Origin: Candidatus Spongiisociaceae bacterium
Lineage (GTDB): Bacteria; Actinomycetota; Acidimicrobiia; Spongiisociales; Spongiisociaceae
DNA length: 64,000 nucleotides
Direction: 5' to 3'
Assembly (NCBI GenBank): GCA_965202675.1
Contig: OZ241842.1
Location: 899,188-963,187, forward strand
In this document: positions 46,020-62,762 of the stretch, piece after piece
Layout of the letters: every line of letters starts with the position of its first letter
Position numbering within the stretch: the first letter of the stretch is position 1
Notes under the pieces: generated by a model
Databases searched by the model: none
Told to the model about the DNA's origin: nothing
Seen by the model: the letters and a program-made list of their open reading frames with translations, nothing else
Made by a program: the position numbers and the translations under genes

Positions 46020-46127
46020 GTCAGACTGGTCTTGGGATCAACGATTAGCGCCACCCGACCGGGACGGGAAGCTGGTTGCGGAGGCGTTGTTGGTCAGACT
46101 GGTCTTGGGATCAACGATTAGCGCCAC
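46020..46127 (+). repeat. Pair of perfect 35-36-bp direct repeats (gtcagactggtcttgggatcaacgattagcgccac) spaced 73 bp apart
   Basis: Copies at 46020-46054 and 46093-46127, lying about 80 bp upstream of the DUF499 start. Confidence 0.8.
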
Positions 46128-46206: not shown

Positions 46207-49200
46207 ATGGGCGGCATCCTTGAAAGTTGCAAGCCGCGGGCTGATGTACTGACCGGCGGGCTGACGGACAAGCACTTCGCCGCCCAGCTTGATCAGGTGG
46301 TCGCCAACGCTGCGGGCTACGAGGACTACGCCGACGCCGACCGGTTCTTTGACCTGACCTACCCGACTCAGGGTCTGCGCGACCTGCTGGGCGGCACCTT
46401 CGGGCGTATTAACACCAGACGCCCCCCCCCCCCGCGATAGTTTAGATACTTCTAACGCTGAGTACGCTGTTTATCGATATGAAACCAGCTTTGGGGGAGG
46501 CAAGACTCACGGGCTGATCGCCCTTTGGCATCTGGCACGCGGGGCCCGGCCCGGCAACCTGGCTGATTTTGTTGATCCGGGCCTGTTGCCCGAAACCTGC
46601 CGGGCGGCGGCGGTGGTCGGCGACGCCCTCGACCCGATCAACGGGCTGACCTCCGGCGGCATCACCACCTACACGCTGTGGGGTGAGATCGCCCGGCAGC
46701 TCGGCCCCGACGCCTGGGCCCTGATGGAACAGAGCGACGCCGCCCGCACCGGGCCGGGGAAACAGGTGTGGCTGGACATCTTCGGAGCGGGCCCCGCCGT
46801 CGTCATCATCGACGAGCTCGCCCAGTATCTGCGGCGGCTGGGCGCGTCGGGAGACCAAGCCGTACAGAACCTCGCCCGGGCCACCATCGACAGCCTCAAG
46901 GTGCTGTTCGAGGCCGCCACCGCCGCCCCCGCGGTGCGGATCGTCTTCACCCTGGCCACCGGCGTCGACGCCTTCCAGCGGGAGACCGACGAGCTGTCGG
47001 ACGCCCTCGACCAGGTGGCCGGGGAACAGATTCTCAACGAGGCCCGCGACGTCATGGAGCGGCCCAAGGGGGCGGTCGGCAAGCCCGCCGACGACTACGA
47101 GATCGGCTTCATCCTGCGCCGCCGCCTCTTCTCGCACGTCGACGAGACCGCGGCCGGCGCCGCCCTCACCGCCTACAAGGATCTCTACGCCGGGCTGGCC
47201 GAACGGGATGTCCGGGTCGGGACCGCCACCGACGACCCGGCCGCCTACTGCGACCGCATCCGCACCTCCTACCCGTTCCACCCGGCGCTGATCGACTGCC
47301 TCGACAAGCGCATCGGCCCCCTGCCCGGTTTCCAGCGGGCCCGCGGCGCGCTCAAGATGCTGGCCGAGGCGGTGCGGCGGATCTGGAACGACCGCGCCGA
47401 GCTGCCCATCATCAACCTGGGCGACCTGCCCCTCGAAGCCCAGGCGGTGCGAACCTGCATCACCAGCTCCATCGGCCGAGATGCGCTGGACGGACCCGCC
47501 CAGGCCGATTTCGCCGGCGCCAACTCCCACGCCGCCGGAGTGGACAACGAGCGCTGGCCGGACGAACGGGCCGCCTCCCGCGCCTGCCGCGCCGTGTTCT
47601 GCCACAGCGTCGCGGGCGAACCGGCGCCGGGAGCGGCCCTGCCCGACATCCATCTCGGCGTCCTCCGCCCCGGCGAGAACCCCGAAACGGTCGACGAAGC
47701 CCTGGCCGCGGCGAGCCGGGTGGCCTGGCACCTGGTGTCGGACGGGGCGCGCTGGCGGTTCCAGGTCGAACCCAACGCCAACCGCATCATCGCCGCCGAA
47801 ACCCAAAACGTTTCCCAGGCCGACGTAACAGAGGAGCTGAGCCGCCTGGTCGAACGGTTCTTCGCCTCCGACGGCGCCGTCAGAGCCGTCCACCGCCCCG
47901 CCGGACCCGCCGATGTTCCCGACCAGCCCAAGCTGCATCTCGCTGTCCTGGACTGGACCGACACCAGCGTGGCCGCCCGCGACGCCGCCGAGCCGCCGCC
48001 CCCGGTGGCTGAGATCGCCGACTGGGCGGGGGTGTCCGAAACCAACCGCACCCACCGCAATGCGGTCATAGCCCTGGTCGCCGACGCAGACGAGCTGGAG
48101 GCCATGCGCGATCAGGTCCGGTTCGACCTGGCCGCCCGGCGGATCACCCGCGACGACGAACGCATGCAGCAGCTGGGGCCGGAGGTGGTCAAGCGGCTCA
48201 AGAAGCTGGCCGACGCGGCGGGCCTGGAAACCCGGGTGGCGGTGTGCCGCGCCTACCGGCACCTCTACTGGCCCGCCCGCGACCCCCAGAACCACAACCT
48301 GCGCCACTTCGAGCTTCCGCCCGCCCAGCAGGGCAAGACGCCCAAAGGCGCCCAGACCAAGGTCCTGATCGAAACCCTGCGGCGGCACGGCAAGATATCC
48401 GACTCCGCCCCCGCCACCGACCAGCTGGCCCGCGCCGCCGGTTTTCGCCGAAGCGGGGAGACGACCACCGCCGACCTGGCCGAGGTGCCCTGGCGCGACC
48501 CCGGCCAACCGATCCTCCTCGACCCGAGCCTGATCAGAGAGGCCGTCACGGCGGGGATAAGCAACGGCGCCTGGGTCTACTACGACGCCCGGAAAGAGAA
48601 GGCCTACGACGACAGCCGGGCACTCCCCCAGGTGCGGATCGACCGCGACGCCTGGCTCTACAGCCAGGACAAGGCGCGCGACCTCGGCCTGCTGCGCCGA
48701 CCGGTAACGCCCGACCTGATCGCCCGGGCCGTCAACCAAAGGGAAGGCAGGGCGATCACCGGGCCGGCCCTGCGGTCGAAGCTGGAAGACGACATCGGCG
48801 GGGAGCCGACCAAGAAAGAGGTGCTGGAGTCGCTGGCCGCGGGCCGCTCGGCCGCAGACCCGGTAATCGTGATCGACGCAACCGCCGCCGAACCGAAGGC
48901 CCTGACGCCCGCCGCCGTCAGGCGCGCCCGGCTCGACGACCTGGAGATTCTCACCGCCGGCGCAGCGGACCGGCGGGGCATAACGGTTCCCGAGCACGAC
49001 CCGGCTCCGATCGTCAAGGGGCAGGGCGGCGTGGGCATGGCCTTCCAGCAGATCGCCGACCGCGTCGCCGACCTCGGCGTCGACTCGATCACGAGCATCA
49101 CGATCAGAACCGATGCCGACCCCGGCGGCGGAACCCGGAACCTGCGGCTGCTGAGCCTATGCATCCCCCAGCTTCCGAAGTTCGCCTGCCGGGTCAAGGC

Positions 49201-49471
49201 GTCCATCACATCCGAATACCACGGGCTGGCAGGCGGGCTGAAAGTAGACCTGTCGGGCGGCGCCCGCGAATACCAGCAGATCGAGTCCGCCCTGCTCGGC
49301 CTGGCCGATGCGGGCAACAAGACCGCGGGCCACCTGAGCGTCAAGCTGACCCCGGCCGCCCCGATCAGGCACGGCGGCGGCCGATGGACGCAGCTGCACC
49401 AGGTCGTCAGGGCCAACAATCCGGGCCGGATCAGCATCACCGCCCAGCTGGCCCGGCCCGACGGCGGGTGA
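46207..49471 (+). pseudogene. DUF499-family ATPase (BrxC/PglY-like), split by a +1 frameshift inside a C12 homopolymer (phase-variable or OFF state)
   Basis: The 77-aa N-terminal ORF (…PRADVLTGGLTDKHFAAQLDQV…FFDLTYPTQGLRDLL…) ends in the poly-C tract at 46422-46433. Downstream, in frame +1, …YETSFGGGKTHGLIALWHLARG… (Walker A) continues into the 961-aa ORF 46586-49471. Removing one C fuses the frames. Confidence 0.75.
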
Positions 49472-49480
49472 GGCCGGCCG

Positions 49481-49912
49481 GTGGCTGTTCCCCGAATGTC
49501 CGAGCGGCGGTTCGTGATGCGGCTCCACCCCACCCCCGCCGCCGACGACTGGGGGTTCTCGCTGAGCGAAGAAATCGGAGCGGAGTCGACCACCGTGGCG
49601 GCGTTGCCCGCGCACCGGGCCCGGCGGCACCGCCGGGCGGTGATCGAAGCGGTAACGGCGGACGGTTACCCGGCGAGCGCGGTCAGCCCGCGCCGGCGGC
49701 GGCCCTTCAACCTGACCCAGGAGCCGGGAGTCCGCCTGGCCCTAGCGGTGCGGGCAGCGGCACCCGTCCGCAAGGTAGACCGCCGAATGGCCATCACCGA
49801 ACGGCTGAGGACCATGGGCGATGAAGAGGCCCTCTACTGGTATGCCCAGGTGAGCGGCACCGGCGGAGGACGCGCCCTCCGAGCCCTGCGGCTGTTGCTG
49901 GCCACGGAATGA
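49481..49912 (+). CDS. DUF3780-like small protein of the DUF499/DUF1156 cassette
   Basis: About 140 aa. Its position between DUF499 and DUF1156 matches the canonical gene order, and its stop overlaps the next start (ATGA). Confidence 0.5.
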   Translation: MAVPRMSERRFVMRLHPTPAADDWGFSLSEEIGAESTTVAALPAHRARRHRRAVIEAVTADGYPASAVSPRRRRPFNLTQEPGVRLALAVRAAAPVRKVDRRMAITERLRTMGDEEALYWYAQVSGTGGGRALRALRLLLATE

Positions 49913-52875
49913 GCCAGCCGGACCCCGCCCAAGCGGATCCTGTTACCCGCCCGCGGCTGTTCATCGAGGAGAGTTTCCCCGTAAGGGAATTGGGCATCGA
50001 GTCGGTGCGTGAGAGCGCACCGATACCCGGACAGTTTCCCAAACTCAAGACCCTGCACGTTTGGTGGGCAAGACGACCGTTGGTAGCCAGCGCCGGTGCC
50101 ATCCTAGGTAGCCTGCTCCCGGCCTGGACCGAGGAGCTGGCAGAACGATTCGCGGACTATCCCGAACTCGCTACTGCTAAAGATTATCGCGAATGGTTTC
50201 TATGTATGTGTGGCATCTGGGGCGACCCAATCGCGGCCCGAGAGCTTGTCCTAATTGCGAAAGCAACGGGGATACGTAACGCCAAAAATCCATACACGTA
50301 CAAACAGGCCTTCAAGAACATTCCGACTGCAGGCAACCTAGGTATTTTGCACGAATTATTAGAGGATACATGGGGGCAAATACCCTTCGTTTCCGACCCG
50401 ACTGCAGGTGGGGGTTCGATTCCTTTCGAGGCCTTGCGCTACGGGTTGGCTGCTCATGCAAACGACCTTAACCCGGTCGCTGTCAGTGTGCTACGGGCTG
50501 GGGTCGAATTGCCTGCCCGCTATGGAATGGGCCTCAACGCCGACCTAGAAACCTGGGGGCGTCTGTTAGTAGATCGGCTTAACAACCGTCTAGGCCCATT
50601 CTTCCAACCTCATGACGATCAAACTGGTAAAGCCGCCACCTTTATCTTCGCCCGGACAGTAGCCTGCCCGCGCACCGGCAAAACGGTACCTCTGGTGGGA
50701 GACTGGTCGTTGCGCCGGGTCAGGAATCCAGCGGCGGTGCGGCTCATCACCCACCGCGACGGCATCGAGCTCGACGAACCCGAGTACCAGATCGTCGAGG
50801 GCCTAGACATCGACTTTCATCCTAAGGACACGGCCACTTATTCACGCGGCAAGGGCATCTCACCCTGGGATGGACTGGTGATCGACGGCAACTACATACG
50901 GGCCGAAGCCCAGGCCGGACGCATGGGTGAAGTCCTCTACGCAGTGGCCGTCCGCACCCCCAAGGGCCGCGGCTTCCGGGCCCCCACCGAGACCGACCGG
51001 GCCGCCTTGGCCGCCGCCGAAGCAGAGCTGAAACGGTTATTGCCTCAATGGGAACAGGAAGATGTGCTACCGACCGAGGCGGTACCCCATGGCACCAAAA
51101 CAAAAGACTTGCTCAACTACGGGATGACGCGCTGGCGAGATCTGTTCACCCCGCGGCAGCTACTGTTGCACGGTTGCTTCGTGGAAGAATACCACAAGCT
51201 GATCCACGAAGTCCGAGCCGCCATTCCCGAACGCGACCGGGCTGACGCGGTGCTCGCACTGCTAGCGATGGTGCAAGGCAAGGCGGTCAGCTATAACTCG
51301 CGCCAGGCCGGGTGGCATGTCAACCGTGGTCAATCGGCCCCCACCTTTGCCATGCATGCCTTCCCGTTCATGAAAACCTTCGCCGAGTTTGAGGGCGGTC
51401 GAGAGCTATATCCATGGTGTCTCCGACAGTTACTCGACGCCTACTCCGGTATTGCCGATCTGTTACCGGGTACCGCCGACCTGCCTGGCCCCGAAAGCCC
51501 AGTCCTCAGCGGCGAACCCCGAATCGAGGTAACCAAGGGCAACGCCGGATACATGCCCGACATCCCTGCCCGGAGCTTTGAGCTGGTGTGCATAGACCCG
51601 CCCTACTACGATAACGTGATGTACGCAGAGCTGTCCGACTACTTCTACGTGTGGAAAAAACGCACCATCGGCAAGCTCTGGTCCGAGTTCTTCGACGACG
51701 AGCTGACCAACAAACACGACGAGGCGGTCAAAAATAAGACTCGCTTCGCCGCTATGGGACGACGGGCGAACGAGCTTGCAAGCAGCGACTACCAGTTCAA
51801 GATGCAGGCCATCTTCGACGAGTGCCACCGCATCGTGCGCGACGAGGGCGCAATGTGCGTGATGTTCACACACAAGGCGACTGACGCCTGGAACGGTCTG
51901 GGGGCATCGTTGCTGGATGCCGGATTCACAATCGAGGCATCCTGGCCCATGAGCACCGAGTCGCCAGCTTCGTTGCACCAGGCCAAGAAGAACGCGGTCA
52001 AATCGACCATCTTCCTGGTGTGCCGCAAGCGGCCGGACCGGCCCGACGAGGGCGAGCGTATCTACCTTTCCGAAATCGAGGCGGAAGTCCGCGCCGCAAC
52101 GGGAGAGGCCCTGCTCCGCGCCGCCGAGCAGGGTTTGAGTGGGGTAGACCTGCTGCTGTCGACCTACGGCCCAGCCCTTTCGGTGCTGTCGCGCCATTGG
52201 CCGGTCTACTCCGCCGAGACCGACGACGAAGGCCGTTCCCGACGGCTACACCCCGAAGAGGCCCTCGACATCGCCCGGGCCGAAGTTACCCGCCGCCAGC
52301 GCATCCGCCTGGTAGGGCGCGAAGTAGAATTCGACCCGTTTACAGACTTCGCGATCGCCGCCTGGGATACCTTCCGTACCCGGCAGTTTCCCTTCGACGA
52401 CGCCCGCCGTCTAGCCCTGGCCGCGGGCGGACTTGATCTGTCCGAGCTGAAACGAGCCAAGCTCGTCAGGGCCAAAGCGGGCAATGTCACCATGCTCGAA
52501 CCCCGCGAGCGGCTGCGCCGCGACGGAGACGAAGACCTGTCCGGCGTCAACCGAAGCCGTTCCGCCTTTGCGGTCGCGGTCGACGCGGTGCACACCGCCC
52601 TATACATCACCGACCTCGACGGCCTCGGGGCGGCCAAGCACTGGCTCGACCAGCGCGGCCTGACCAACAACTCGCGCTTTACGGCCTGCTTGCAGGCGCT
52701 GGTAAGGGCGATCCCCCGCACCAAGACAAGGGGCGAGTGGAACCTGCCCGAGGCCGAGCTACTCGACGACCTGGTTACCACCTACTTCCCCGACATCGAG
52801 GTCCCACCCGACCCGGGCGAGGACCCCGAGCAGCTAACCCTTGACAACTCGAACGACGATCCATCCGATGGCTGA
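49909..52875 (+). CDS. DUF1156-family N6-adenine DNA methyltransferase
   Basis: N-terminal …LHVWWARRPL… signature and catalytic DPPYYDNVMY motif. 988 aa. Confidence 0.8.
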   Translation: MSQPDPAQADPVTRPRLFIEESFPVRELGIESVRESAPIPGQFPKLKTLHVWWARRPLVASAGAILGSLLPAWTEELAERFADYPELATAKDYREWFLCMCGIWGDPIAARELVLIAKATGIRNAKNPYTYKQAFKNIPTAGNLGILHELLEDTWGQIPFVSDPTAGGGSIPFEALRYGLAAHANDLNPVAVSVLRAGVELPARYGMGLNADLETWGRLLVDRLNNRLGPFFQPHDDQTGKAATFIFARTVACPRTGKTVPLVGDWSLRRVRNPAAVRLITHRDGIELDEPEYQIVEGLDIDFHPKDTATYSRGKGISPWDGLVIDGNYIRAEAQAGRMGEVLYAVAVRTPKGRGFRAPTETDRAALAAAEAELKRLLPQWEQEDVLPTEAVPHGTKTKDLLNYGMTRWRDLFTPRQLLLHGCFVEEYHKLIHEVRAAIPERDRADAVLALLAMVQGKAVSYNSRQAGWHVNRGQSAPTFAMHAFPFMKTFAEFEGGRELYPWCLRQLLDAYSGIADLLPGTADLPGPESPVLSGEPRIEVTKGNAGYMPDIPARSFELVCIDPPYYDNVMYAELSDYFYVWKKRTIGKLWSEFFDDELTNKHDEAVKNKTRFAAMGRRANELASSDYQFKMQAIFDECHRIVRDEGAMCVMFTHKATDAWNGLGASLLDAGFTIEASWPMSTESPASLHQAKKNAVKSTIFLVCRKRPDRPDEGERIYLSEIEAEVRAATGEALLRAAEQGLSGVDLLLSTYGPALSVLSRHWPVYSAETDDEGRSRRLHPEEALDIARAEVTRRQRIRLVGREVEFDPFTDFAIAAWDTFRTRQFPFDDARRLALAAGGLDLSELKRAKLVRAKAGNVTMLEPRERLRRDGDEDLSGVNRSRSAFAVAVDAVHTALYITDLDGLGAAKHWLDQRGLTNNSRFTACLQALVRAIPRTKTRGEWNLPEAELLDDLVTTYFPDIEVPPDPGEDPEQLTLDNSNDDPSDG

Positions 52876-55800
52876 GCGCCCGCCGGGGTGCTTCCAGGGC
52901 CTCGACCTCGCTACCCGCTACTCGGCGGGCGCCAGGGACATGCTGGCCGATTTCTACGTCCCGGTGCTGTCGAGGGCGGTGCGCTACGACCGGGCGGCGG
53001 GCTACTTCGCCTCGTCGTCGTTCTACGCGGCGGCGGCCGGGATGGCCCGGTTCATCGACAACGCAGGCGAGATACGGCTCCTGGTCGGCGCGCAGCTCAC
53101 CGAGGACGACCACAAGGCCCTGCTCGGCAATGTTCCGCTGGACCACATCCTGGCCGAACGCCTGCGGCGGGAAGGGCCGACCGTCGACGACGTGGCCCGG
53201 CGGCGCCTGCAGGTCATCGCCTGGCTGGTGAGAGAAGGGCGGCTGACCATCCGGGTCGGACTGCCCTGCGACGACTTCACCGGGGCGCCGATCCCCGACC
53301 CCGACGATCCGCGGCAACACAAGTACTTCCACATCAAATGGGGCGTGCTCGAAGACGCCGCCGGCGACCGGCTGGCCTTCGACGGCAGCATCAACGAATC
53401 GGCGTCGGGTTGGCAGAGCAACTACGAGTCCTTCAGCGTCTACCAGTCGTGGAGCCGACAGGCCTGGCGGCAATACGGCCGGCCGATCGTCAACGAGTTC
53501 GAACGGCTCTGGCGCGGCGGCGAGGTGCACGGCTGGCGCAGCCTGGCCCTGCCCGAGGTGGAACAGCGCCTGATGGACCTTCTGCCCGCCGAGCCCGGCT
53601 GGGCGCCGCCGGCCCGGGACCCGCTCGAACCCGAGCTGAGCGAGGCCGACCGGGCGGCGATCGCGGAGATCCGGGCCGCCCCCCGCCGCGGCGCCGGCGT
53701 GGGAATGATGTCGAGCGGCATCGAACCCTGGCCCCACCAGCTGGCCATCGCCCGGCGCATCTGCGAGAACCGGCCCCGCAGCTACCTGCTGGCCGACGAG
53801 GTGGGACTGGGCAAGACCATCGAGGCGGGGCTGGTGCTGCGGGAGCTGTGGCTCGGCGGTCAGGTGGAAACGGCGTTGATCCTGGCCCCGGCGTCGATTC
53901 TGATCCAGTGGCAGGAGGAGCTGGCCGAGAAGTTCCTGCTTGAGGTCCCCCGCCTGGACGGGCGCAGGCTGCGTTTCCCCGGCGGGGCGGAGCGGCGTCT
54001 GGAGCGCGGCGAGAACCGTTGGCGGGCGGCGCCGGTGCTGCTGTCGTCTTCGCATCTGGCCCGGATGCGCTCCAACCGCGCCGAGCTGCTCGACGGGCCC
54101 GGCTGGGACCTGGTGTTCGTCGACGAGGCCCACCACGCCCGGCGGCGGGGGTCGAGGCCCTCCGACTCCCCCAACCAGATGCTGGCAACCCTGAAGGCGC
54201 TGGCCGAGGAGAACCTGTTCGGGTCGCTGCTGCTGGCGTCGGCCACCCCCATGCAGCTCCACACGCACGACCTCTGGGACCTGCTGGCGCTGTTCGGCCT
54301 GCCGGACGGCTGGAACCGCAGCGCCGACGCCATGGAGCGCTACTACCGCGCCCTCCAGGAGCCGTTCGGCGACCGCGACTGGGTCCATCTGCAGAAGATG
54401 ATGGCCGGTTACCTGGAGGAAGCGGCGCCCGACCCCTATGTCGTGGAGATGATCGAAGAAGCGGCGGGCTTGGTGGGGGCGGCCCGCATCCGCGGGTTCC
54501 ATGAGAACCCCGGGTTCCGCTCGGGCGGTGTCGAAGAGGAGGCGAGGCCGTCCTGGGACGACTGGCTGCGGGCCAACACGCCGGTGCGCGCCCGGGTGTT
54601 CCGCACCACCCGGGCGACCCTGCGCCGCTACAAGCAGACCGGGGTGCTGGACCCCGATACGGTCATCCCGGAGCGGCGCATCGACGACCGGTTCTACAGC
54701 CTGGGCGGGGCCAAACCCCTCTACGACCGCATCGAGCGCTACATCCTGCGCTACTACGACGCCTACCTGTCCGCCGGGGGCAGGAGCGCGCCGCTCGGCT
54801 TCATCATGACCGTATACAGGCGGCGGCTGACCTCGAGCTTCTACGCCATCCGCAAATCCCTGGAGCGGCGGCGCGAGGTGCTGGCCCGCCGGGGTTCGCT
54901 GCCCGGCCTGCTCGACGAAGACGACCGGTTTGCCGCTGAGGGCGCCGAGGGCCTCGACGACCTAGCGGGGCTCGACAACCTGGAGGCCGGCGACCTCGCC
55001 CTGGCGGGCGGGGACCTGCGGGCGGAGCTGGCCGAGCTGGACGACTTCATCGGCGAGCTGGGGAACCTGCCGCCCGACGAACCCAAGATGGAAGGACTGT
55101 ACGACCTGCTCGACCACAACTTCGGTTCGGGCGCGCACGACACGGCGGTGATCTTCACCCAGTACCGCGACACCCTCGAATACATCCGCCGGCAGCTGCT
55201 CAATATCTACCGGGGCGGGCTGGCCTGCTACTACGGCGGCCGGGGGGAATGCTGGGACGAAGCGTCCGGATCATGGGAGCGGGTCGGCAAGGAAACCATC
55301 AAGGAGCGGTTCCGGCGGGGCGAGGTGAAGATACTGCTGGGCACCGACTCCATGTCGGAGGGCCTCAACCTGCAGACCTGCGGCTGGCTGATCAACTTCG
55401 ACCTGCCCTGGAACTTCACCAGGGTGGAGCAGCGCATCGGTCGGGTGGACCGCATCGGCGGCCAACCGGAGGTGCAGGTCAGCAACTTCTTCTACAAAGG
55501 CACCGTGGAGGAGGACATCTACCGCCGCATCCGCGACAGCCACGACTGGTTCTCCAACGTAATCGGCAACGCCGCCCCGGTGCTGGCCGCCGCCGAGAGC
55601 CTGATATCCGACGCCGCCATGAGGCGCAGCACCACCGAGCAGGCCGCCGTCGAGATCAAAGACCTGATCGCCCGCCTCGACCGGGCAGCCGTCCGCCTCG
55701 AAGACCTCGACTCCGTACCCCGCTTCGACACCGACCTACAACCCCCCATGACCCTCCCCGACCTCCGCCGCCGCCTCCTCTCGATAGCAGCCGTCCAAGA

Positions 55801-55975
55801 CCTCCTAACCCCACCCGACGGCCCCGCCCCCAAAGACATATGGCGCCTAACCCTGAACGGAACCGACCACCACATAACCTTCACCCCCACCCTCTACGAA
55901 CAAACCCCCCGCCTCAACCTCCTCACCTGGGGCAGCCCCCTCCTCACCCGCCTCCTAACCCACCTCGACCCCTGA
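52868..55975 (+). CDS. SNF2/DEAH helicase with N-terminal PLD-like nuclease domain
   Basis: N-terminal …RYDRAAGYFASSSF… (PLD-like), then helicase motif I LLADEVGLGKTIEAG, motif II FVDEAHHAR and a C-terminal helicase domain (…LLGTDSMSEGLNLQ…). The start overlaps the DUF1156 stop by 8 bp. Confidence 0.8.
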   Translation: MAERPPGCFQGLDLATRYSAGARDMLADFYVPVLSRAVRYDRAAGYFASSSFYAAAAGMARFIDNAGEIRLLVGAQLTEDDHKALLGNVPLDHILAERLRREGPTVDDVARRRLQVIAWLVREGRLTIRVGLPCDDFTGAPIPDPDDPRQHKYFHIKWGVLEDAAGDRLAFDGSINESASGWQSNYESFSVYQSWSRQAWRQYGRPIVNEFERLWRGGEVHGWRSLALPEVEQRLMDLLPAEPGWAPPARDPLEPELSEADRAAIAEIRAAPRRGAGVGMMSSGIEPWPHQLAIARRICENRPRSYLLADEVGLGKTIEAGLVLRELWLGGQVETALILAPASILIQWQEELAEKFLLEVPRLDGRRLRFPGGAERRLERGENRWRAAPVLLSSSHLARMRSNRAELLDGPGWDLVFVDEAHHARRRGSRPSDSPNQMLATLKALAEENLFGSLLLASATPMQLHTHDLWDLLALFGLPDGWNRSADAMERYYRALQEPFGDRDWVHLQKMMAGYLEEAAPDPYVVEMIEEAAGLVGAARIRGFHENPGFRSGGVEEEARPSWDDWLRANTPVRARVFRTTRATLRRYKQTGVLDPDTVIPERRIDDRFYSLGGAKPLYDRIERYILRYYDAYLSAGGRSAPLGFIMTVYRRRLTSSFYAIRKSLERRREVLARRGSLPGLLDEDDRFAAEGAEGLDDLAGLDNLEAGDLALAGGDLRAELAELDDFIGELGNLPPDEPKMEGLYDLLDHNFGSGAHDTAVIFTQYRDTLEYIRRQLLNIYRGGLACYYGGRGECWDEASGSWERVGKETIKERFRRGEVKILLGTDSMSEGLNLQTCGWLINFDLPWNFTRVEQRIGRVDRIGGQPEVQVSNFFYKGTVEEDIYRRIRDSHDWFSNVIGNAAPVLAAAESLISDAAMRRSTTEQAAVEIKDLIARLDRAAVRLEDLDSVPRFDTDLQPPMTLPDLRRRLLSIAAVQDLLTPPDGPAPKDIWRLTLNGTDHHITFTPTLYEQTPRLNLLTWGSPLLTRLLTHLDP

Positions 55976-56200
55976 CCCCCCGATTTACCGGCGCGCCTGC
56001 GCAGCCCCTTCAAATCCAGATCGGGCGGGCAGATCCGGCGACGCGTGGACAACCGCGCCGGACCCGTGTTAGCATAGAAAGATGACCGCCATCACTGACA
56101 CCGCGGAAGCATCTACCGGCCTTGCCGTACCGGATCAAGGCTACGAAGGCCCGCCCCTAGAAGAAATCAAGAGCGTTCTACCGTTCAAGGTAGCAAAGCT

Positions 56201-56952
56201 AACCGTCTTATAGAAGAGAAAGGAAAATGAATGGCCATAACCACCAATGTAATCACACGCACTTTCCGAATTAAATATGGAGTACAAACTGGAACTTGCT
56301 TTACCATTGATATTGATGAACGTCAATATATTGTAACGGCTAAACATATCGTAGCAGATATAAACCCCAACGACAATATTCAAATTCTACATGAAGGTAA
56401 ATGGAAGGAATTGACAACAAACATTGTTTGGATACCTAACTCAGATGAAGATATTGCGATTCTAGCTCCTGAAATTCGAATCTCACCTCCCTTTTTATTA
56501 ATTCCTAGCATGGAAAGGATGTATTTGGGTCAAGATTTGTATTTTTGTGGGTTTCCTTTCGGGTTGAACACTGAAGTCGGGACACTAAATCGTGATTTTC
56601 CTGTCCCTTTCATTAAGAAAGGAATCGTTTCAGCTGTTGAAACTAGAGAGAACTGTTCAGCCCGAATCTACATTGACGGCCATAATAATCCCGGATTTTC
56701 TGGAGGCCCTGTTATTTTTACTGATCCGAAAACGAATGAACTCAAAGTCGCAGGAGTTATTAGTGGCTACTACCCAAATTATGAACCAGTTCTTAAAAAC
56801 AATAATCGCACCGAATTAATGAGCATACAAAACACTGGTATAGTGATCGCATATGCTCTGGGAAGAGCAGTAACCTACATTGAAGAACACCCTACGGGTG
56901 TACCTGCAAAACCTAGCCTAGAGGATAGCGGATAGGTATTAACCGTCTTATA
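56201..56952 (+). mobile_element. AT-rich gene cassette bounded by 13-bp perfect direct repeats TAACCGTCTTATA
   Basis: Repeats at 56201-56213 and 56940-56952 enclose only the protease gene. GC is about 36%. Confidence 0.55.
56231..56935 (+). CDS. Trypsin-like (S1/chymotrypsin-fold) serine protease
   Basis: Catalytic-triad context TAKHIV (His), DEDIAIL (Asp) and GFSGGPV (Ser). Strong RBS aggaaaatga. Confidence 0.65.
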   Translation: MAITTNVITRTFRIKYGVQTGTCFTIDIDERQYIVTAKHIVADINPNDNIQILHEGKWKELTTNIVWIPNSDEDIAILAPEIRISPPFLLIPSMERMYLGQDLYFCGFPFGLNTEVGTLNRDFPVPFIKKGIVSAVETRENCSARIYIDGHNNPGFSGGPVIFTDPKTNELKVAGVISGYYPNYEPVLKNNNRTELMSIQNTGIVIAYALGRAVTYIEEHPTGVPAKPSLEDSG

Positions 56953-57110
56953 TACTCATGATGCACCACACAAAGGCGACTTTATTTAACCCGATATTCA
57001 GAAGCGGTTCCCTGAGGCACAGGGCGTAATATTCGTGTTTCACAAGGCACCCGGCTTGCCCGACTAGATTTCGGCAGACGGTATTCAGTAGTATGGTAAG
57101 GTGAGGCATC

Positions 57111-57374
57111 ATGACAGCAACATCCCGACAAGTCTTGCCGTGGACGAAGCACGGTTCAGAAGACTGCCCCTACGAGGACGAGAACGCTTGCGTCGACGCG
57201 TGGACCGTAGCTCATCGGGAGCAACTAGACCGATTCACTGAGAAAGTGCTCGCCGATCTGGCCGCCGAGTCGCCCGAAGATTATACGCTCAACAGCGAAG
57301 GACGAACGCCACGCCCGCCCGGTCTCCGGGCCGCGGGGTCGCGGCCGTTGAAGGCGGTACCGAGGGCTAACTGA
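57111..57374 (+). CDS. Hypothetical protein (87 aa)
   Basis: Good RBS (aaggtgagg). No homology call. Its C-terminus runs into the coxM-derived repeat. Confidence 0.3.
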   Translation: MTATSRQVLPWTKHGSEDCPYEDENACVDAWTVAHREQLDRFTEKVLADLAAESPEDYTLNSEGRTPRPPGLRAAGSRPLKAVPRAN

Positions 57375-57655
57375 GCAGCGGTGGCGAGGGCGGCTTTTAA
57401 CGGCCCGGGCGGTGTACACCTTGGCCAGGTGGGTCTTTGTACTCAACCGAGCCGTAGAGGTCCTCGAGCACCTTTATGCCGTCCACGGCGTGGGAGGCCG
57501 CGGCTGATACGGCGGTGTCGGAGCCGTCCGTGCCTACCAGGGCGGCGACCGCCGCATCGGCCCGCGGTCGGGCGGTTGCCCACTCCGGTTACGGCCGTGG
57601 CGGCGCTGATATACCCGTTGGACCTGGTTATTGAGGCGGCTACCCCGGCCGCGGC
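57338..57655 (-). repeat. Degenerate copy of the coxM 3' end (attL/attR-like direct repeat, copy A)
   Basis: About 92% identical to 61870-62188, with indels that break the coxM frame (the fragment translates as …THLAKVYTARAVK…). Confidence 0.8.
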
Positions 57656-57797
57656 AGGTGAGCCGCTTGGTACGGACCCTCCACCTCTAACACGCCGTTT
57701 CAAGGCTCATGCCAAGCCTCGATTCCACGATCAAGTACCGAAGATTATGCGAGGAGAGATCCTAGTGAGGCACATGACTGCCTACTATTCCTCAAAA

Positions 57798-58925
57798 CTA
57801 TAAGGGGTACATAGTAGCCACGATTTCTCTTACAACGAGGTGAGAAATTCGATTGCGCCCGTTACCACCCATAGTACTGAACCTACTTGAAGGAACCGTA
57901 TGCTCCCGTACTCGATACCATTGCTGAGCTAGATTGACCAGTTTTTCTCCGTTCATTCCATTAGAAGCTGTTCCAGAGGGAAAGGTGAGAACTACACGGC
58001 AACCGTTTTGGGATAAAGTATAAAGTAGTTCCTTCATTACCTTCAGAGCTTGAGATTTAATACTGTAGGCTGAACTAGGTCTTTCCGAAATGGGAGGGTA
58101 TCGCCCGACTCCTGACACAGATCCGCACTTACCCCGAGCTAATGTTTCTAGTACATGATAGAATCGACTGTAATGGACTGATGAATAAGGCGGATCAACA
58201 AACACGACGTCGTCTTCGTTAAGCGTACGAGCTAGTACGTTAGCGTCCGCCATATCCGCTGTACCTTTCTGCAGAGCATGTCGACTAGCAAGATCAGGAA
58301 GCTTATCCATGATGTAAGAAATAGGGTCGATCCGCCAACTATCTGCTATATGTGGTAAAGCCGAACGAGTTGGCTGGAATGGCTGAGCTGTATGCCCGGG
58401 AGAAGCAGCACAACGAGATGCGGCTAAGATAATCAGAGCCTGACAAAAACGCTTAAGCTGAGAACTATGCCGTGGCAAATTTTCAAGGAGCGAATCAAAA
58501 ACCATAGCTTGCCGTGGTGAAAAATAATGACCGCCATATGCCGTCCAAATCAAACCACCAGTTTGAGAACTACACAACCCTCTTGCTTCTAACACAGTTT
58601 CTATTTTTTCAACATCCTCTACCGAAAGGGACTGGAAAAGGGGACTACGTGCAAGAGCAAGTTTGACTGGGTTTAGCCAGCCTTCTACAACACGAGACTG
58701 ATCAAGAGGCCTATCACGCTCAATTACAGCTCCAGCTAGAACAACAGCATAGCGCTGTAAATCAGCGGCCAAAACCGATAAGCCGCGCGCCTGTGCCACA
58801 TACCAGGATACTCGCCCTGTTCCCGAAAATAAGTCTACGAACCTCTTCGCTGTGTCAGCCTCGGCTAGCACTATTTCACCCAGCCCATTCTCAAGCATTG
58901 CCAACTTGGACCCCATATACTTCAT
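57798..58925 (-). CDS. D12-class (Dam-like) N6-adenine DNA methyltransferase
   Basis: N-terminal KYMGSK (AdoMet motif I-like) and catalytic VFVDPPYSSVHY. 375 aa, GC about 45%. Confidence 0.7.
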   Translation of the reverse strand: MKYMGSKLAMLENGLGEIVLAEADTAKRFVDLFSGTGRVSWYVAQARGLSVLAADLQRYAVVLAGAVIERDRPLDQSRVVEGWLNPVKLALARSPLFQSLSVEDVEKIETVLEARGLCSSQTGGLIWTAYGGHYFSPRQAMVFDSLLENLPRHSSQLKRFCQALIILAASRCAASPGHTAQPFQPTRSALPHIADSWRIDPISYIMDKLPDLASRHALQKGTADMADANVLARTLNEDDVVFVDPPYSSVHYSRFYHVLETLARGKCGSVSGVGRYPPISERPSSAYSIKSQALKVMKELLYTLSQNGCRVVLTFPSGTASNGMNGEKLVNLAQQWYRVREHTVPSSRFSTMGGNGRNRISHLVVREIVATMYPL

Positions 58926-60262
58926 GATACTAGCCCCATAATAGCGAACCTTCCTAGATTCGTCGTCTCGTGGAGAGAGCGTGCACAGTTGACAAAAAAT
59001 CCTTGGATAGACTGATCATCAGAATCAATCCATTCTTCAATATCTTCTAATGCGCTAGCTACATCCGCCCACAGATCTGTAATATTTTCAGGTCTATTAA
59101 TATCTTTCCATAGTCCTATTTCCCACCCTCTTATACTCCACCAAAATTCTAACGTCTGAAAGTCTATGTTTGTAGCTCTCATAAAATCACTTGCTGCTCC
59201 GGTAGCTATATGAAGCAGAAAAAAGGCACGACTTAATAGTGGACGAGGATCACCATAATAATCACCTCTACCTGATGATAATCTAATAAGTTTTGGTACC
59301 TTTTGATCTAAAATTTTACCTAAAATAAACCGTTCTACTTCTTTGTATAAGTAACCATCTTCAAGGACGGCTGTAAGCATAGTGTCCACTTGTCTTTTCA
59401 ATTCGTCAGGGTGATCTTGTAACGTAGGCATAGAATTAAAAATATTCTCTACTGTCTGACACAAAAAGTATAGATCCAAGATATCAATACCTCCCTGTGT
59501 AGTAGAGGGCTCAAGTTTACGAACTATATCAGAAACATATTTGATAGGTTTCATAAAATTTCGATTTCTGTAACTAGAAATATAAAGAGGTCCATAGCTA
59601 GCGGCATTTCTTAAGAATCGATCATTAGTCATCCGCTTTAGATCAACACCAAAGTCGTACAACATCTTCGAGGCATTGATAAGGGCCGGGCCTTCTTCCC
59701 CTACACATGGCATTTCGTTAATCCACATCGTCAAAGGTATCGAGCGAGGACGAACTATTCGACCTAATAGAACACCAGCATCTCTTGATTTCAGCCAATG
59801 TTCTAAATATAACCAGATCGCATGATGAGTTGATCGTCGTTTATCAGATATTAAATGAGCATTGCCTGCTACGTCTATTATGCAATGATGTTGATCAAAT
59901 ACACCAATACCTTGACTTGCCAAAAGCGACATAGTTGCGCGCATCTCTGCGTAATAACCTAGATGAATCGCTATTGGCTCTCCGCGTACCTGGGCATAAA
60001 GAGCTTGTCCTAGGTACTCCCAACTATCAATGAGATGAAAGAGTATTGATACAGCTATGTATTCTCTTAGATCATGTGAATTCAGGTTGCCCTTTTTATC
60101 TTCCTTCTTAATACTTTTTACAAGGTTATTATAGTAGGTATTGTTCCTATTAAGCCAACGGTCATTGCCAAAATTGTTAAGCAAAGATGGCGCGGATTTT
60201 TGAATACCATCTGGCGAAGCCAAGTTTAAATATTCCTTTTCTTGTGAACTCAATTTATACAT
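58922..60262 (-). CDS. Hypothetical protein, 446 aa, no recognisable motifs
   Basis: Overlaps the neighbouring genes by 4 bp upstream and 8 bp downstream, consistent with an operon. Low GC. Confidence 0.6.
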   Translation of the reverse strand: MYKLSSQEKEYLNLASPDGIQKSAPSLLNNFGNDRWLNRNNTYYNNLVKSIKKEDKKGNLNSHDLREYIAVSILFHLIDSWEYLGQALYAQVRGEPIAIHLGYYAEMRATMSLLASQGIGVFDQHHCIIDVAGNAHLISDKRRSTHHAIWLYLEHWLKSRDAGVLLGRIVRPRSIPLTMWINEMPCVGEEGPALINASKMLYDFGVDLKRMTNDRFLRNAASYGPLYISSYRNRNFMKPIKYVSDIVRKLEPSTTQGGIDILDLYFLCQTVENIFNSMPTLQDHPDELKRQVDTMLTAVLEDGYLYKEVERFILGKILDQKVPKLIRLSSGRGDYYGDPRPLLSRAFFLLHIATGAASDFMRATNIDFQTLEFWWSIRGWEIGLWKDINRPENITDLWADVASALEDIEEWIDSDDQSIQGFFVNCARSLHETTNLGRFAIMGLVS

Positions 60263-61754: not shown

Positions 61755-61869
61755 GTAACTCCTGATTCTTCACGTTGATTGAATCTGAGGCCGAACCCTC
61801 CAGCTTTTGCGACCTGGGGTATTCATTCTGGCCACATTAACAGTCCTCCACCCGCCTGGATGGGTTGCA

Positions 61870-62188
61870 GGCGGCGGTCAAGGCGGTACCGGGGGCTAAC
61901 CGGCGGCGGCGAGGGCGGCTTTGACGGCCCTGGCGGTGTACACCTTGGCCAGGTGGGTCTTGTACTCGACCGAGCCATAGAGGTCCTCGAGCACTTCTAT
62001 GCCGTCCACGGCGTGGGAGGCCGCGGCTTGTACGGCGGCGTCGGAGCCGTCCGTGCCTACCAGGGCGGCGGCCGCCGCGTCGGCGCGCGTCGGGCGGTTG
62101 CCCACTCCGGTTACGGCCACCGTGGCGGCGCTGATATACCCGTTGGACCTGGTTACCGAGGCGGCTACCCCGGCCACGGCGTAGTCGG
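61870..62188 (-). repeat. coxM 3'-end repeat, copy B (part of intact coxM)
   Basis: Direct-repeat partner of 57338-57655. Confidence 0.8.
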
Positions 62189-62762
62189 AATGGCCTCCCC
62201 GGCGGCCCAGCTTGTCGTAGGCCGAACCGGTTCCGGGGCCTGCCTTCGGGATGCGCATCTCGGTGAGGATCTCGTTGGGTTCCAGCGCCGAGGTCATCGT
62301 GTCGACGAAGAAGTCGGCGGCGGCGATCTCCCTCGTCCCGCCGGACGAGGCCGCCACCATCACCGCCCCGAGCGCCAGCGCCGCCACCGGCTGGTCGGCG
62401 GCCAGGTCGGCGTGGACCATCGACCCGCAGCAGGTGCCGCGGTTGCGCACCTGGCGGTCGCCCGTCCAGGAGGCGGCGGCGGCCAGCGCTGAGGCGCGCT
62501 CTTGGATCAGGCTGCTGGAGGCCACCTCGGCGTGGCGCACCAGGGCGCCGATCGAGATGTGGCCGCCGTTGTCGGCAATGCGGTCCAGCCCGCCGATCCG
62601 GCCGATGTCGACCACCATCGGCGGCGACAACAGGCGCATCTTCATCAGCGGGAGCAGGCTCATGCCGCCGGCCAGCACCTTGGCGCCGGGGTTGGCGTCG
62701 AGGGCGGCCAGCGCCTCGCCCAGGCTCTCCGGAGCGGCGTAGTCGAACTGTCGTGGATACAT
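61896..62762 (-). CDS. coxM: Molybdo-flavoprotein FAD-binding (medium) subunit, CoxM/XdhB-like
   Basis: MYPRQFDYAAPESLGEALAAL…AGGMSLLPLMK… is the FAD-binding PCMH-type domain. Confidence 0.85.
   Translation of the reverse strand: MYPRQFDYAAPESLGEALAALDANPGAKVLAGGMSLLPLMKMRLLSPPMVVDIGRIGGLDRIADNGGHISIGALVRHAEVASSSLIQERASALAAAASWTGDRQVRNRGTCCGSMVHADLAADQPVAALALGAVMVAASSGGTREIAAADFFVDTMTSALEPNEILTEMRIPKAGPGTGSAYDKLGRRGGHSDYAVAGVAASVTRSNGYISAATVAVTGVGNRPTRADAAAAALVGTDGSDAAVQAAASHAVDGIEVLEDLYGSVEYKTHLAKVYTARAVKAALAAAG

Follow-up and report, generated by a model that had tools for sequence, protein, structure and literature searches.

Background

Gene cassettes of integrons carry an attC site at the 3' end of their ORF, an imperfect hairpin of 55-140 nt that runs from an R'' box (RYYYAAC) to an R' box (GTTRRRY). 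Complete integrons are reportedly not known in Actinobacteria (Cury et al. 2016). Homologues of bacteriophage-resistance integron cassettes (BRiCs) also occur outside integrons (Kieffer et al., 10.1101/2024.07.02.601719).

Here, we describe a serine protease gene in a 64-kb stretch of DNA (hereafter the window) from a Candidatus Spongiisociaceae bacterium. It resembles integron cassettes and BRiCs: it is a promoterless single ORF whose ends are discrete and whose 5' UTR is very short, it lies next to a candidate platform promoter, and it occurs in many contexts. In some of these, homologues of the protease are canonical cassettes that belong to arrays of 3-8 attC sites. The window copy differs from integron cassettes in that it has no attC hairpin, TTRRRY start, IntI or cassette array, and in that its flanking repeat consists of 13 nt of its own 5' end and not of an attC.

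PrrC in the prr locus is an accessory defence gene embedded in a type I restriction-modification (R-M) operon. Hma or "type-2 BREX-related" (BR) systems are defined by a DUF499 ATPase, a DUF1156 N6-adenine methyltransferase (N6-MTase) and an HKD/PLD-helicase encoded in one operon (PMC12839542, PMC11232893). The hma operon is reported to be an insertion hotspot, with insertions in ~66% of hma loci that include Septu, PARIS, AAA_21 and DUF262/DUF1524 genes (PMC11232893), and "auxiliary and backup effectors" have been described around BR systems (PMC12839542). The window shares with the accessory genes of Hma/DUF499 and type I R-M operons the location of a foreign gene within or directly behind a restriction-like operon; in L006, a locus of a sister lineage, GmrSD_N and HEPN genes occupy this slot, and L112 and L041 embed the protease. 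Unlike the window gene, the reported accessory effectors of Hma/BREX-related systems are nucleases or ATPases, and no trypsin-like protease is listed in PMC11232893 or PMC12839542.

Cytoplasmic chymotrypsin-fold domains like that of the window protein have been acquired recurrently by unrelated defence systems as the trypsin modules of Hachiman, Avs, Lamassu and DRT. These modules activate zymogen effectors (Tuck et al., PMC12799240; Evans et al., 10.1101/2025.11.14.688446), and each combines a sensor-fused protease with an adjacent gene for its substrate, which is an MBL, alpha/beta-hydrolase, Pepco or EACC1 protein (PMC12799240; 10.1101/2025.11.14.688446). The window protein, in contrast, is a protease domain alone, and its homologues have no conserved partner gene (81 loci).

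Host operon and cargo slot

Features of the locus are listed in Table 1. Judged by its domain content, the operon upstream of the protease appears to be an Hma-like, type-2 BREX-related restriction-like system, since the DUF499 ATPase, the DUF1156 N6-MTase and the HKD/PLD-helicase that define such systems are all encoded in it. Its PADLOC matches are HmaB (3.9e-73), PLD_Helicase (8.3e-61) and HmaA (9.7e-51), and NCBIfam returned DUF499_antiphage. The small gene at the position that stand-alone DUF3780 has in Hma loci matches DUF7680, not DUF3780.

Table 1 Features of the protease unit and its surroundings (positions in the window)
Feature	Position	Strand	Basis or remark
Defence operon of host-like GC carrying the slot	46586..55975	+	Pfam, PADLOC, NCBIfam, source-contig gene calls
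DUF499 ATPase	46586-49471	+	
DUF7680 protein	49481-49912	+	
DUF1156 N6-adenine methyltransferase	49909-52875	+	
PLD/HKD-SNF2 helicase	52841-55975	+	
Promoter-like site, TGGACA-18 nt-(TG)TAGCAT	56046..56075	+	Consensus scan; conserved in L002, L035, L006
43-codon "leader" ORF, host-like GC	56082..56213	+	Translation, L006 comparison
5' UTR of the unit, promoterless, 31-32 nt	56199..56230	+	Conserved in L002, L035, L033, L034, L003
Left TAACCGTCTTATA copy	56200..56212	+	Initial bases of mobile unit and protease 5' UTR
Shine-Dalgarno AAAGGA within the 5' UTR	56219-56224	+	Read from the sequence
Stand-alone trypsin-like (S1, HtrA-fold) serine protease, 234 aa	56231..56935	+	Triad H39, D74, S157 (GFSGGP)
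Right TAACCGTCTTATA copy	56940..56952	+	Repeats the unit's first 13 nt; putative terminal redundancy or insertion scar
Spacer from unit to next gene, intermediate GC (40-60%)	56953..57110	+	
orf87, 87-aa ORF, right border of the slot	57111..57374	+	Conserved beside the same helicase system in L006, L034

Between the helicase gene and the protease lies a promoter-like site that is probably the promoter of a cargo slot. It ends 6 nt 5' of the ATG of the 43-codon leader ORF, which suggests a leaderless transcript. The first ~31 codons of the leader are homologous to the N-terminal extension of GmrSD_N (DUF262), the slot cargo in L006, and the dN/dS of the leader is ~0.17-0.38 against the sister strains L002 and L035; the ORF is part of the slot and not of the protease unit. 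In L006, the same promoter and leader are followed by GmrSD_N and RiboL-PSP-HEPN genes with a GC content of ~40% and then by a homologue of orf87. For the window's orf87, searches of Pfam, PADLOC and NCBIfam gave no family match. The locus would define a reusable slot for cargo genes, equipped with a promoter and leader of its own and located inside an Hma/BREX-related system. The protease unit is probably transcribed from this host-type promoter and leaderless leader, which together would drive its expression.

The gene had been placed between the helicase gene and the DGQHR island, and this location is correct, with orf87 and a 285-bp pseudo-copy of a flavoprotein gene's 3' end separating it from the island. 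We examined 28 GTDB genomes that encode a related helicase system, and the protease follows the helicase in none of them. They showed no empty slot site either, L006 being the one informative sister slot. An exact-pattern search of JGI metagenome contigs with a conserved orf87 motif, meant to reveal an empty site or different cargo, gave no match. A 10/13 match to the repeat motif after the helicase gene of L008 was dismissed, being covered by chance expectation (hand calculation).

A promoterless single-gene unit

The segment from 56199 to ~56939 is a horizontally acquired, promoterless single-gene unit made up of a 5' UTR with a ribosome-binding site and the serine protease gene. It begins with CTAACCGTC, and a unit with an identical 5' end was found in at least four different flanking contexts. 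In a six-sequence alignment, the homology of the window, L033, L034 and L003 contexts starts at an invariant CTA (56199-56201) and stops around the protease stop codon, at ~56936. By blastn, positions 167-904 of L033 align with 56199-56936 of the window, and both L033 flanks are unrelated to those of the window. Discrete ends, a promoterless ORF and a short 5' UTR are cassette-like features that the window unit has. The earlier note's idea of a horizontally acquired single-gene cassette is borne out by these contexts and by the family members that are integron cassettes.

The cassette is GC-poor relative to its host, as had been claimed, and the figure of 36% given for it was too low: we measured 39.3% for the protease ORF and 38.9% for the stretch between the repeats, against 67.1% for the window outside 56-62 kb. 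Low GC extends ~50 nt past the right repeat and ~40 nt before the left one, and the foreign segment may therefore slightly exceed the repeat-bounded unit. In 56 homologue loci, the GC content of the gene averages 5.8 points less than that of its flanks and never exceeds it by more than 5 points.

The 13-nt repeat

The window contains exactly two copies of TAACCGTCTTATA, both on the + strand, and no third copy even at 2 mismatches. The right copy lies where the earlier note had put it, and the left copy, given there as 56201-56213, had to be shifted by one to 56200-56212. The protease gene is the sole ORF between them, so that the repeats do enclose this gene alone. The left copy includes the stop codon of the 43-codon ORF and lies 18 nt 5' of the protease ATG. 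As the homology of four contexts starts at 56199, the left copy is the 5' end of the unit itself, and the 13-mer consists of the first 13 nt of the unit, which recur 4 nt past the protease stop codon. The flanking repeat is an exact match in the window, whereas the sister strains L035 and L002 show 12/13 and 10/13, respectively.

The claim that a chance recurrence of a 13-mer is very unlikely was reached by too simple an argument. In composition-matched simulations, ~5.7 exact 13-mer direct pairs within 1 kb were expected per 64-kb window, and ~10 isolated pairs are actually present, all within GC-rich DNA. What holds is the local case, as the probability of any such pair in this AT-rich kilobase is 0.008. 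Furthermore, the copies lie 1-4 nt from unit ends that were defined independently by the comparison with L033, L034 and L003, a coincidence of <1e-5 (hand calculation: 4^-13 x ~20 positions), which makes chance negligible. Still, one may argue that the pair is coincidental and mechanistically meaningless and that the protease arrived through illegitimate recombination or island mosaicism, given that the repeat is not selectively conserved between sister strains and is missing in L033 and at all other insertions of the gene, and that the breakpoints of sister-strain divergence lie away from it. Given the match with the unit ends, we find this improbable.

Allele swapping limited to the cassette was also considered and rejected. 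Identity between the window and L002 declines gradually from ~55,600 and not at the repeats; it shows a step inside the protease gene near 56,500 and is still low through orf87.

In line with the site-specific insertion suggested in the earlier note, the 13-mer could instead be an attachment-site core or a target-site duplication left by a site-specific recombinase or transposase acting in trans, in which case the cassette could excise and re-insert. A sharp 13-bp identity at both unit ends is the attL/attR pattern expected after Campbell-type integration, and no similarity extends past the 13 nt on either side (P = 0.69 after, P = 0.66 before). In addition, its position differs between related islands, as the unit precedes orf87 in the window and follows it in L034. 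Against this, the left copy belongs to the conserved 5' UTR of the protease and accompanies the gene into unrelated contexts, so it is not target DNA; this excludes a target-site duplication. The right-hand copy is missing in L033, L034, L003 and five other contexts, and an identical 13-mer already present in the target would be improbable unless a related unit was resident. Domain searches of the island (~43.3-62 kb) revealed no integrase, transposase or recombinase gene, and no terminal inverted repeats were found at the unit ends. Taken as a whole, an attachment site or target-site duplication seems improbable.

The same observations, no inverted repeats, no transposase and a left repeat that accompanies the gene elsewhere, led us to reject an IS element, transposon or MITE. 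Inverted repeats, terminators and RNA structure in the flanks did not exceed shuffled controls, Rfam gave no matches, and no tRNA lies near the locus.

We favor the explanation that the gene is a mobile unit whose repeat is a terminal redundancy from a single ancestral insertion and whose product is a defence effector, and we give this reading as a whole about an even chance. The redundancy could have arisen if a circular insert was opened or crossed over inside the 13 nt, or if the inserted fragment was longer than one unit and came from a tandem or concatemeric copy. The repeat of today would then be a neutral, decaying scar common to the sister strains. Under this terminal-redundancy reading, the junction of the circle or tandem would read GATAGCGGATAGGTAT-TAACCGTCTTATA-GAAGAGAAAGG, and under an att-type crossover the empty site would read GGTAGCAAAGC-TAACCGTCTTATA-TACTCATGATG. 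No circular junction or tandem copy was observed. The flanking repeat is confined to one lineage and absent in eight other insertion contexts of the gene, and any mechanism would therefore be drawn from one event.

A bolder reading, which we regard as improbable, is a cassette system independent of integrons, in which a promoterless single-gene circle with a 13-nt terminal crossover site would insert at a leaderless promoter platform in actinobacterial Hma-type operons, its cargo being a single-protein abortive-infection protease with neither fused sensor nor zymogen partner. If true, this would be a functional analogue of the integron, with platform promoter and exchangeable cargo, in a phylum without integrons; the exchangeable cargo would be the protease in the window and GmrSD_N + HEPN in the sister lineage.

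Relationship to integron cassettes

Members of the protease family are bona fide integron cassettes in at least 11% of homologue loci. Among 99 loci, 11 have canonical attC hairpins (GCCTAAC...GTTAGGC) immediately adjoining the gene on one or both sides, where ~1.4 are expected by chance, and arrays of 3-8 attC sites were present in L071, L091, L095, L103, L110 and L113.

This raises the question of whether the window unit is itself a former integron cassette, its 13-mers being remnants of two adjacent attC sites of the donor array, namely of their R''-box ends (RYYYAAC followed by C...), which were captured along with the segment. In the canonical loci, the attC located at or over the stop codon starts with GCCTAAC or GGCTAAC, followed by C, and the window copies read AGCTAAC-CGTC and TATTAAC-CGTC, the right one beginning 1 nt past the stop codon. 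Adjacent attC sites in arrays share identical stretches of 15-21 nt that flank the gene in like manner, and defence cassettes with pseudo-attC sites are known outside integrons (10.1101/2024.07.02.601719). Several features of the window unit disagree with such an origin. Downstream of either copy there is no R' (GTTRRRY) partner and no hairpin, the left copy is 18 nt from the ATG and falls far short of attC length, and the unit does not start with TTRRRY. The 31-nt UTR is stable in L003 and L034 despite a dS of at least 0.9, and the integron-borne homologues are just 40-46% identical to the window protein. We therefore consider an ex-integron origin of the 13-mers very unlikely.

No attC-like pair or hairpin lies beside the window protease, and the spacer behind the unit holds no attC-like hairpin, terminator or other detectable structure. 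The few attC-like candidates in the window, at 5185, 39201 and 46036, occur at background rate and are not canonical; that at 46036-46095 was rejected as part of a 73-nt-spaced repeat. Neither an IntI integrase nor a cassette array was found among the examined island genes.

The protease

The protein is predicted to be a cytoplasmic serine protease of HtrA-like fold with an intact triad. It matches Pfam Trypsin_2 (PF13365) over residues 21-162 (1.6e-12, 48.8 bits against a cut-off of 27.6). Its AF2 model (pLDDT 88.7) shows a chymotrypsin double-barrel with His-Asp-Ser order, for which Foldseek found the protease domain of DegS/DegP (probability 1.00, TM ~0.6); against viral models, only generic chymotrypsin-fold matches were obtained. 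The claim of an intact triad is supported, as H39, D74 and S157 align to the catalytic residues of HtrA in PDB sequence matches. Across an alignment of 52 sequences, H39 and D74 do not vary, and conservation of S157 is at least 90%. In agreement with the earlier note, we detected neither a signal peptide nor a membrane anchor: there is no hydrophobic segment, and sequence and AF2 model place the N-terminus within the folded barrel. A dN/dS of 0.17-0.47 indicates purifying selection.

HtrA, DegS and DegP (S1C) gave the best structure and sequence matches and share the fold, the His-Asp-Ser order and the GxSGGP motif with the window protein. Unlike them, at 16-19% identity and a TM of ~0.6, the window protein has no PDZ domain (it ends ~50 residues past the protease domain), no signal or anchor and no housekeeping synteny. 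Its NCBIfam scores of 24.8 and 24.6 bits are far under the family cut-offs of 416 and 470, and membership in the HtrA/DegP/DegS subfamily was rejected. In PADLOC, the nearest profiles represent protease domains from effectors of the Lamassu, DRT and Hachiman systems, the matches being LmuA (4.8e-13), RT-Protease_XI, PDC-M35A and HamA1.

Defence effector or other function

The homologues form a large, conserved family of solitary genes, with >1,600 protein clusters and >500 loci in JGI metagenomes. With a mean column identity of 57% in the 52-sequence alignment, it is unusually conserved for a defence gene.

By genomic association, a role of the protease as a stand-alone defence or abortive-infection effector is plausible. 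The earlier note had proposed to check the surroundings of homologues, and some are embedded in type I R-M and Hma-type operons. One lies inside a type I R-M operon (L041) and another between a helicase gene and a DUF1156 methylase gene of a distant Hma-like system (L112). In L036/37 the homologue follows an ORF with an HsdS-like C-terminus, identified only by eye, and in L042 it adjoins an Eco57I-type gene. The protease may be a proteolytic effector that works on its own in anti-phage defence or abortive infection, and it may form a backup layer to the restriction-like system that carries it. A zymogen or sensor partner of the kind found in characterised trypsin modules is not present. The papers retrieved by full-text search describe serine proteases that are partnered or fused to a sensor, and among them we found no experimental test of this stand-alone family.

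The alternative that the protease is no defence effector is unlikely, and still the most probable of the rival explanations. The gene could encode a selfish or addiction-type toxin, serve as a cassette for niche adaptation (for example in processing or quality control) or derive from a phage, with defence regions simply tolerating its insertion. In favor of this, the neighbours of the homologues are heterogeneous, many immediate ones being housekeeping genes and PADLOC-type ones a minority; the column identity is unlike that of typical fast-evolving sensors; integron cassettes encode many functions outside defence (PMC10661359); and a few homologues sit at prophage ends. This is opposed by the independent embedding in restriction-type operons in L041, L036/37 (HsdS-like ORF by eye), L112 and the window, by the Eco57I-type neighbour in L042, by the GmrSD_N + HEPN cargo of the L006 slot and by the closest profiles being those of defence proteases. 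The signal peptide or PDZ domain expected for a quality-control role is not present. A toxin would leave the absence of a conserved antitoxin-like partner to be explained, and just 9 matches among 2.9 million viral contigs (IMG/VR) speak against a phage gene.

When the neighbours at 81 loci were clustered, no family was shared by more than 4 of the loci, and by Pfam and PADLOC, any one family accounts for at most 2 of the 105 immediate neighbours. Some homologues adjoin toxin-antitoxin genes. A type II toxin-antitoxin pair was rejected for the window, as there is no conserved adjacent small partner and the 43-codon ORF belongs to the slot.

The presence of the family in integron cassettes and restriction-type operons across phyla makes it a candidate minimal single-protein module of proteolytic defence or abortive infection. 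Such a module would differ from the known sensor-fused protease paired with a zymogen. The window copy, a cassette-type gene outside an integron with exact ends and a 13-nt redundancy in a 67% GC actinobacterial symbiont, may offer a rare sequence-level view of the movement of cassette genes between integrons and ordinary defence islands.

The family is rare on phages and plasmids. Searches of plasmid and phage databases returned one plasmid and three phage records, at 35-37% identity.

Boundaries of the protease unit

The gene for the trypsin-like serine protease sits in an island between housekeeping genes, next to an operon that is the counterpart of the DUF499/DUF1156 restriction-like Hma system and of "type-2 BREX-related" systems (PMC12839542). 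The island yielded no integrase, transposase or recombinase gene, the surroundings of the protease gene no tRNA and the window no Rfam family. Relatives of the operon's helicase occur in 28 GTDB genomes, mostly Acidimicrobiia MAGs, several bearing sponge-associated Candidatus names such as Poriferisocius and Spongiisociaceae.

Features of the island and its borders, in window coordinates
Feature	Position	Strand	Remarks
Left of island	prmC 41422-42357		prmC, ATP synthase operon, SHMT
Island genes			DUF4143 ATPase and MazE-like gene
Four-gene operon			Host GC; DUF499 ATPase, DUF7680 protein, DUF1156 N6-adenine methyltransferase, PLD/HKD-SNF2 helicase
Left 13-mer	56200-56212	+	Ends 18 nt before protease ATG; includes stop codon of upstream 43-codon ORF (leader, 56082-56213)
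5' UTR of unit	31 nt	+	AAAGGA at 56219-56224; protease ORF directly after
Protease ORF	56231-56935	+	234 aa
Right 13-mer	56940-56952	+	Begins 4 nt past protease stop
orf87	57111-57374	+	87 aa; right border of cargo slot
D12-class Dam-like methyltransferase	57798-58925	-
446-aa protein	58922-60262	-	No family match
DGQHR/DndB-like protein	60255-61754	-
Right of island: CO-dehydrogenase-type flavoprotein gene	61896-62762	-

The 13-mer TAACCGTCTTATA occurs exactly twice in the 64-kb window, both times on the forward strand, and a third copy is absent at up to two mismatches. The earlier note had reported this pair correctly except that its first copy begins one nucleotide before 56201, and the protease gene is, as claimed there, the single ORF enclosed. 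The strong GC contrast also holds, with values of 39.3% for the ORF, 38.9% between the repeats and 67.1% for the window outside 56-62 kb in place of about 36% and 68%. Neither copy shows similarity beyond the 13 nt, and there are no inverted repeats at the repeat.

The claim that chance recurrence was very unlikely needed a different argument. In composition-matched simulations, a window of this kind contains approximately 5.7 exact 13-mer direct pairs spaced within 1 kb; the real window has about 10 isolated pairs, every one in GC-rich DNA. Set against the unlikely alternative that the repeat is meaningless are the probability of such a pair in this AT-rich kilobase alone (0.008) and, decisively, its position: chance is negligible because the unit boundaries were set independently of the repeat, and a hand calculation for a 13-mer at the unit end (4^-13 x ~20 positions) gives less than 1e-5.

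These boundaries come from the closest protease relatives, which lie on short metagenome contigs. Two sister loci, L002 and L035, have the flanks of the window and an exact left 13-mer; their right copies match at 10 and 12 of 13 positions, respectively. In contig L033 (76% amino acid identity), the leader start as in the window is followed by 80 nt of unrelated sequence, the unit and again unrelated sequence, with blastn aligning L033 167-904 to window 56199-56936. The gene lies after orf87, not before it, in L034 (71%), and between a PhD-PIN pair and a methyltransferase in L003 (65%). All these contigs share 5' UTR homology that starts at an invariant CTA (56199-56201), and nothing upstream of it aligns across the contexts; the left 13-mer therefore makes up the opening 13 nt of a discrete unit that has no promoter of its own. 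Homology ends at the stop codon or just before it.

The right 13-mer is the unit's own first 13 nt repeated 4 nt beyond the unit. Since the left copy moves together with the gene between contexts, the repeat cannot be a target-site duplication. The shared ends in differing contexts (L033, L034, L003) bear out the mobile single-gene unit proposed in the earlier note; its reading of the repeats as marks of site-specific insertion goes wrong on the nature of the repeat, which is the unit's own end and neither a host target nor a proven att site. The 13-mer was not found flanking the protease gene in eight other contexts.

The window and L002 are 98-99% identical in the helicase, 91-96% over approximately 55,600-56,500 and 80-85% from there through orf87, and dS rises from 0.06 in the helicase through 0.25 (leader) and 0.29 (protease) to 0.35 in orf87. 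Divergence does not break at the repeats; the repeat is thus an old scar inherited from a common ancestor and does not mark where alleles are now being exchanged. Either of two events may have left the unit plus its first 13 nt: a circular molecule opened or crossed over within the 13-nt segment was inserted, or the insert was a stretch of a tandem or concatemer longer than one unit. Neither a circle nor a tandem copy of the unit was observed, nor an empty site.

In L034, the 9 nt directly upstream of the unit (within 625-640) are GATAGCGGA, identical to the last 9 coding nucleotides of the window protease (56924-56932), and L034's own protease has a truncated C-terminal tail. This match could be a circularly permuted cassette junction or coincidence. 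The first 7 nt of the unit (CTAACCG, 56199-56205) also equal the stop-codon region of the flavoprotein gene (CTAACCG, 61896-61902), which is the other insertion hotspot of the island and the junction at which the L034 unit sits; microhomology and chance are both possible.

The cargo slot

Within host-GC sequence (56046-56213), the leader ATG at 56082 lies 6 nt past the end of a promoter-like site (TGGACA-18-TAGCAT, extended TG), a spacing that, by the general pattern of actinobacterial promoters, probably fits a leaderless transcript. In L006, a Ca. Spongiisociaceae genome whose helicase is 79% identical, the promoter and the first ~31 leader codons are present (13170-13300), and the leader continues in frame into a GmrSD_N (DUF262) protein as its N-terminal extension, followed by a RiboL-PSP-HEPN protein (both genes ~40% GC) and directly by an orf87 homologue. 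Window and L006 carry different foreign genes between leader and orf87, and that space is therefore a cargo slot. Promoter-like site and leader appear to form a conserved expression platform, fused to or preceding varied foreign cargo, and the slot promoter would drive protease expression. The protease gene occupies the cargo slot of this Hma-type system as a discrete foreign single-gene unit with terminal 13-nt redundancy.

Another low-GC (~43%) two-gene cargo lies directly past the helicase on the opposite strand in L008 (Ca. Poriferisocius, 13389-14985), encoding a 314-aa protein and a 220-aa putative membrane protein, neither with a Pfam match; locus L005 has no low-GC pair after the helicase. 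The slot agrees with the inserted defense genes in about two thirds of hma loci (PMC11232893) and with the "auxiliary/backup effectors" of BREX-related systems (PMC12839542); neither paper mentions a trypsin-like protease.

The protease and its family

The product is an intact cytoplasmic S1 protease kept under purifying selection (dN/dS 0.17-0.47). It matches Pfam Trypsin_2 (48.8 bits), and its PDB sequence matches are HtrA proteases, with catalytic His, Asp and Ser aligned. In a 52-sequence alignment with an unusually high mean column identity of 57%, H39 and D74 are invariant and S157 (GFSGGP) is at least 90% conserved, in agreement with the intact triad noted earlier. The AlphaFold model (pLDDT 88.7, pTM 0.86) is a chymotrypsin double barrel with the N-terminus within the fold and a disordered C-terminal tail; the lack of a signal peptide is thereby confirmed, and no PDZ domain was found. 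The top structural matches are the DegS and DegP protease domains (TM ~0.6, 16-19% identity), viral structure models gave generic matches only, and the protein scores far under HtrA family cut-offs. Its best PADLOC matches are the protease domains of Lamassu LmuA, RT-Protease_XI, PDC-M35A and HamA1.

A homologue search gave 1,615 protein clusters, almost all of 220-255 aa, and a JGI scan yielded more than 500 loci. Members of the family travel as single genes, in part by way of integrons. No neighbor gene is conserved across 81 loci (the biggest neighbor cluster comprises 4), and no Pfam or PADLOC family recurs in more than 2 of 105 immediate neighbors. Gene GC is on average 5.8 points below the flanks and at no locus more than 5 points above them. 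The family is rare on plasmids, phages and viral contigs.

A flanking-repeat search found 15-21-nt repeats in L075, L091 and L113 which are attC sites, the recombination sites of integron cassettes. In a core-site-plus-hairpin scan, the gene was directly adjoined on one or both sides by a textbook attC site in 11 of 99 loci, with ~1.4 expected from the scan's background of approximately one site per 13 kb. These sites read GCCTAAC...GTTAGGC, span 56-132 nt and form the typical bulged hairpin; several, of 60 nt, closely resemble the aadA-type attC (GCCTAACAATTCATTCAAGCCGA...GTTAGGC). Six loci, L071 (4348-8010), L091, L095, L103, L110 and L113, have arrays of 3-8 attC sites in which the homologues are canonical integron cassettes. 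No attC, TTRRRY start or cassette array was found at the window copy. Many small phage-defense systems are encoded by integron cassettes and have homologues outside integrons (10.1101/2024.07.02.601719); another cassette-type adaptive function is an alternative to a defense role.

As to whether homologues are embedded in defense islands, restriction-type operons are one recurrent setting, and in L042 the gene sits beside an Eco57I-type gene. In L041, the gene lies inside a type I R-M operon and overlaps the end of hsdS, and in L036/37 it follows an ORF with an HsdS-like C-terminus, recognized by eye in a truncated product without domain match. In L112 (MKWU01000229.1, 1900-12200), a homologue of 42% identity stands between the helicase and DUF1156 methylase genes of an Hma-like system only distantly related to the one in the window (24-30% protein identity), an independent association of the family with this class. 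Other homologues neighbor toxin-antitoxin genes (HicAB, PhD-PIN, DUF433/DUF5615); that the protease is a selfish toxin is a further alternative.

Plausibly, the unit is a defense effector. The protease may be a self-contained proteolytic effector of defense or abortive infection that possibly backs up the restriction-like system. In the trypsin-like defense proteases characterized so far, the protease is joined to a sensor and its substrate is a zymogen encoded next to it (PMC12799240; 10.1101/2025.11.14.688446). The window protein has neither feature; if it serves in defense, it would have to be sensor and effector by itself, or else host or phage proteins would have to supply its trigger and substrate. 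Most of this is covered by known kinds, namely cassette-type genes, accessory genes embedded in R-M-like operons and trypsin-like defense proteases. New are the stand-alone protease family as a cassette/defense-type module, the family's connection to integrons and, in an actinobacterial island, a terminal redundancy that lacks attC.

Other repeats and inserts in the window

A direct repeat of ~285 bp (~92% identical), present as a degenerate pseudo-copy at 57371-57655 and as the 3' end of the flavoprotein gene at 61896-62180, brackets the low-GC (~42%) three-gene minus-strand island at 57656-61895 (4.2 kb), in which no integrase was found. It looks as if DNA had inserted into the flavoprotein gene at its 3' end and left the gene restored. 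In L002, flavoprotein-gene 3'-end sequence that is closer in sequence to the intact copy comes after orf87, and the contig stops there.

Upstream of the DUF499 operon, a 37-nt element, GGTCAGACTGGTCTTGGGATCAACGATTAGCGCCAC, is repeated 73 nt apart (46019-46115) and a ~25-nt element, GGGGCTTGACCAGGGG...TTCGCAGGG, 68 nt apart (45732-45812); both pairs may be regulatory. The hairpin at 46036-46095 passes loose attC criteria, yet it is not canonical and was rejected.

At 27708-28560, where GC is lower (59-65%), a 111-nt unit is repeated 7.7 times in tandem (77% matches); the array is probably a gene for a repeat-containing protein. Beside the ATP synthase operon, a ~160-nt segment is duplicated 424 nt apart (37740-37900 and 38164-38320), and a 69-nt tandem repeat (3.5 copies, 61% matches) occupies 40169-40406. 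An isolated low-GC (~45%) ORF of 165 aa without Pfam match (24275-24772, minus strand), in a GC dip at 24-25 kb (53%), may be another small foreign insert.
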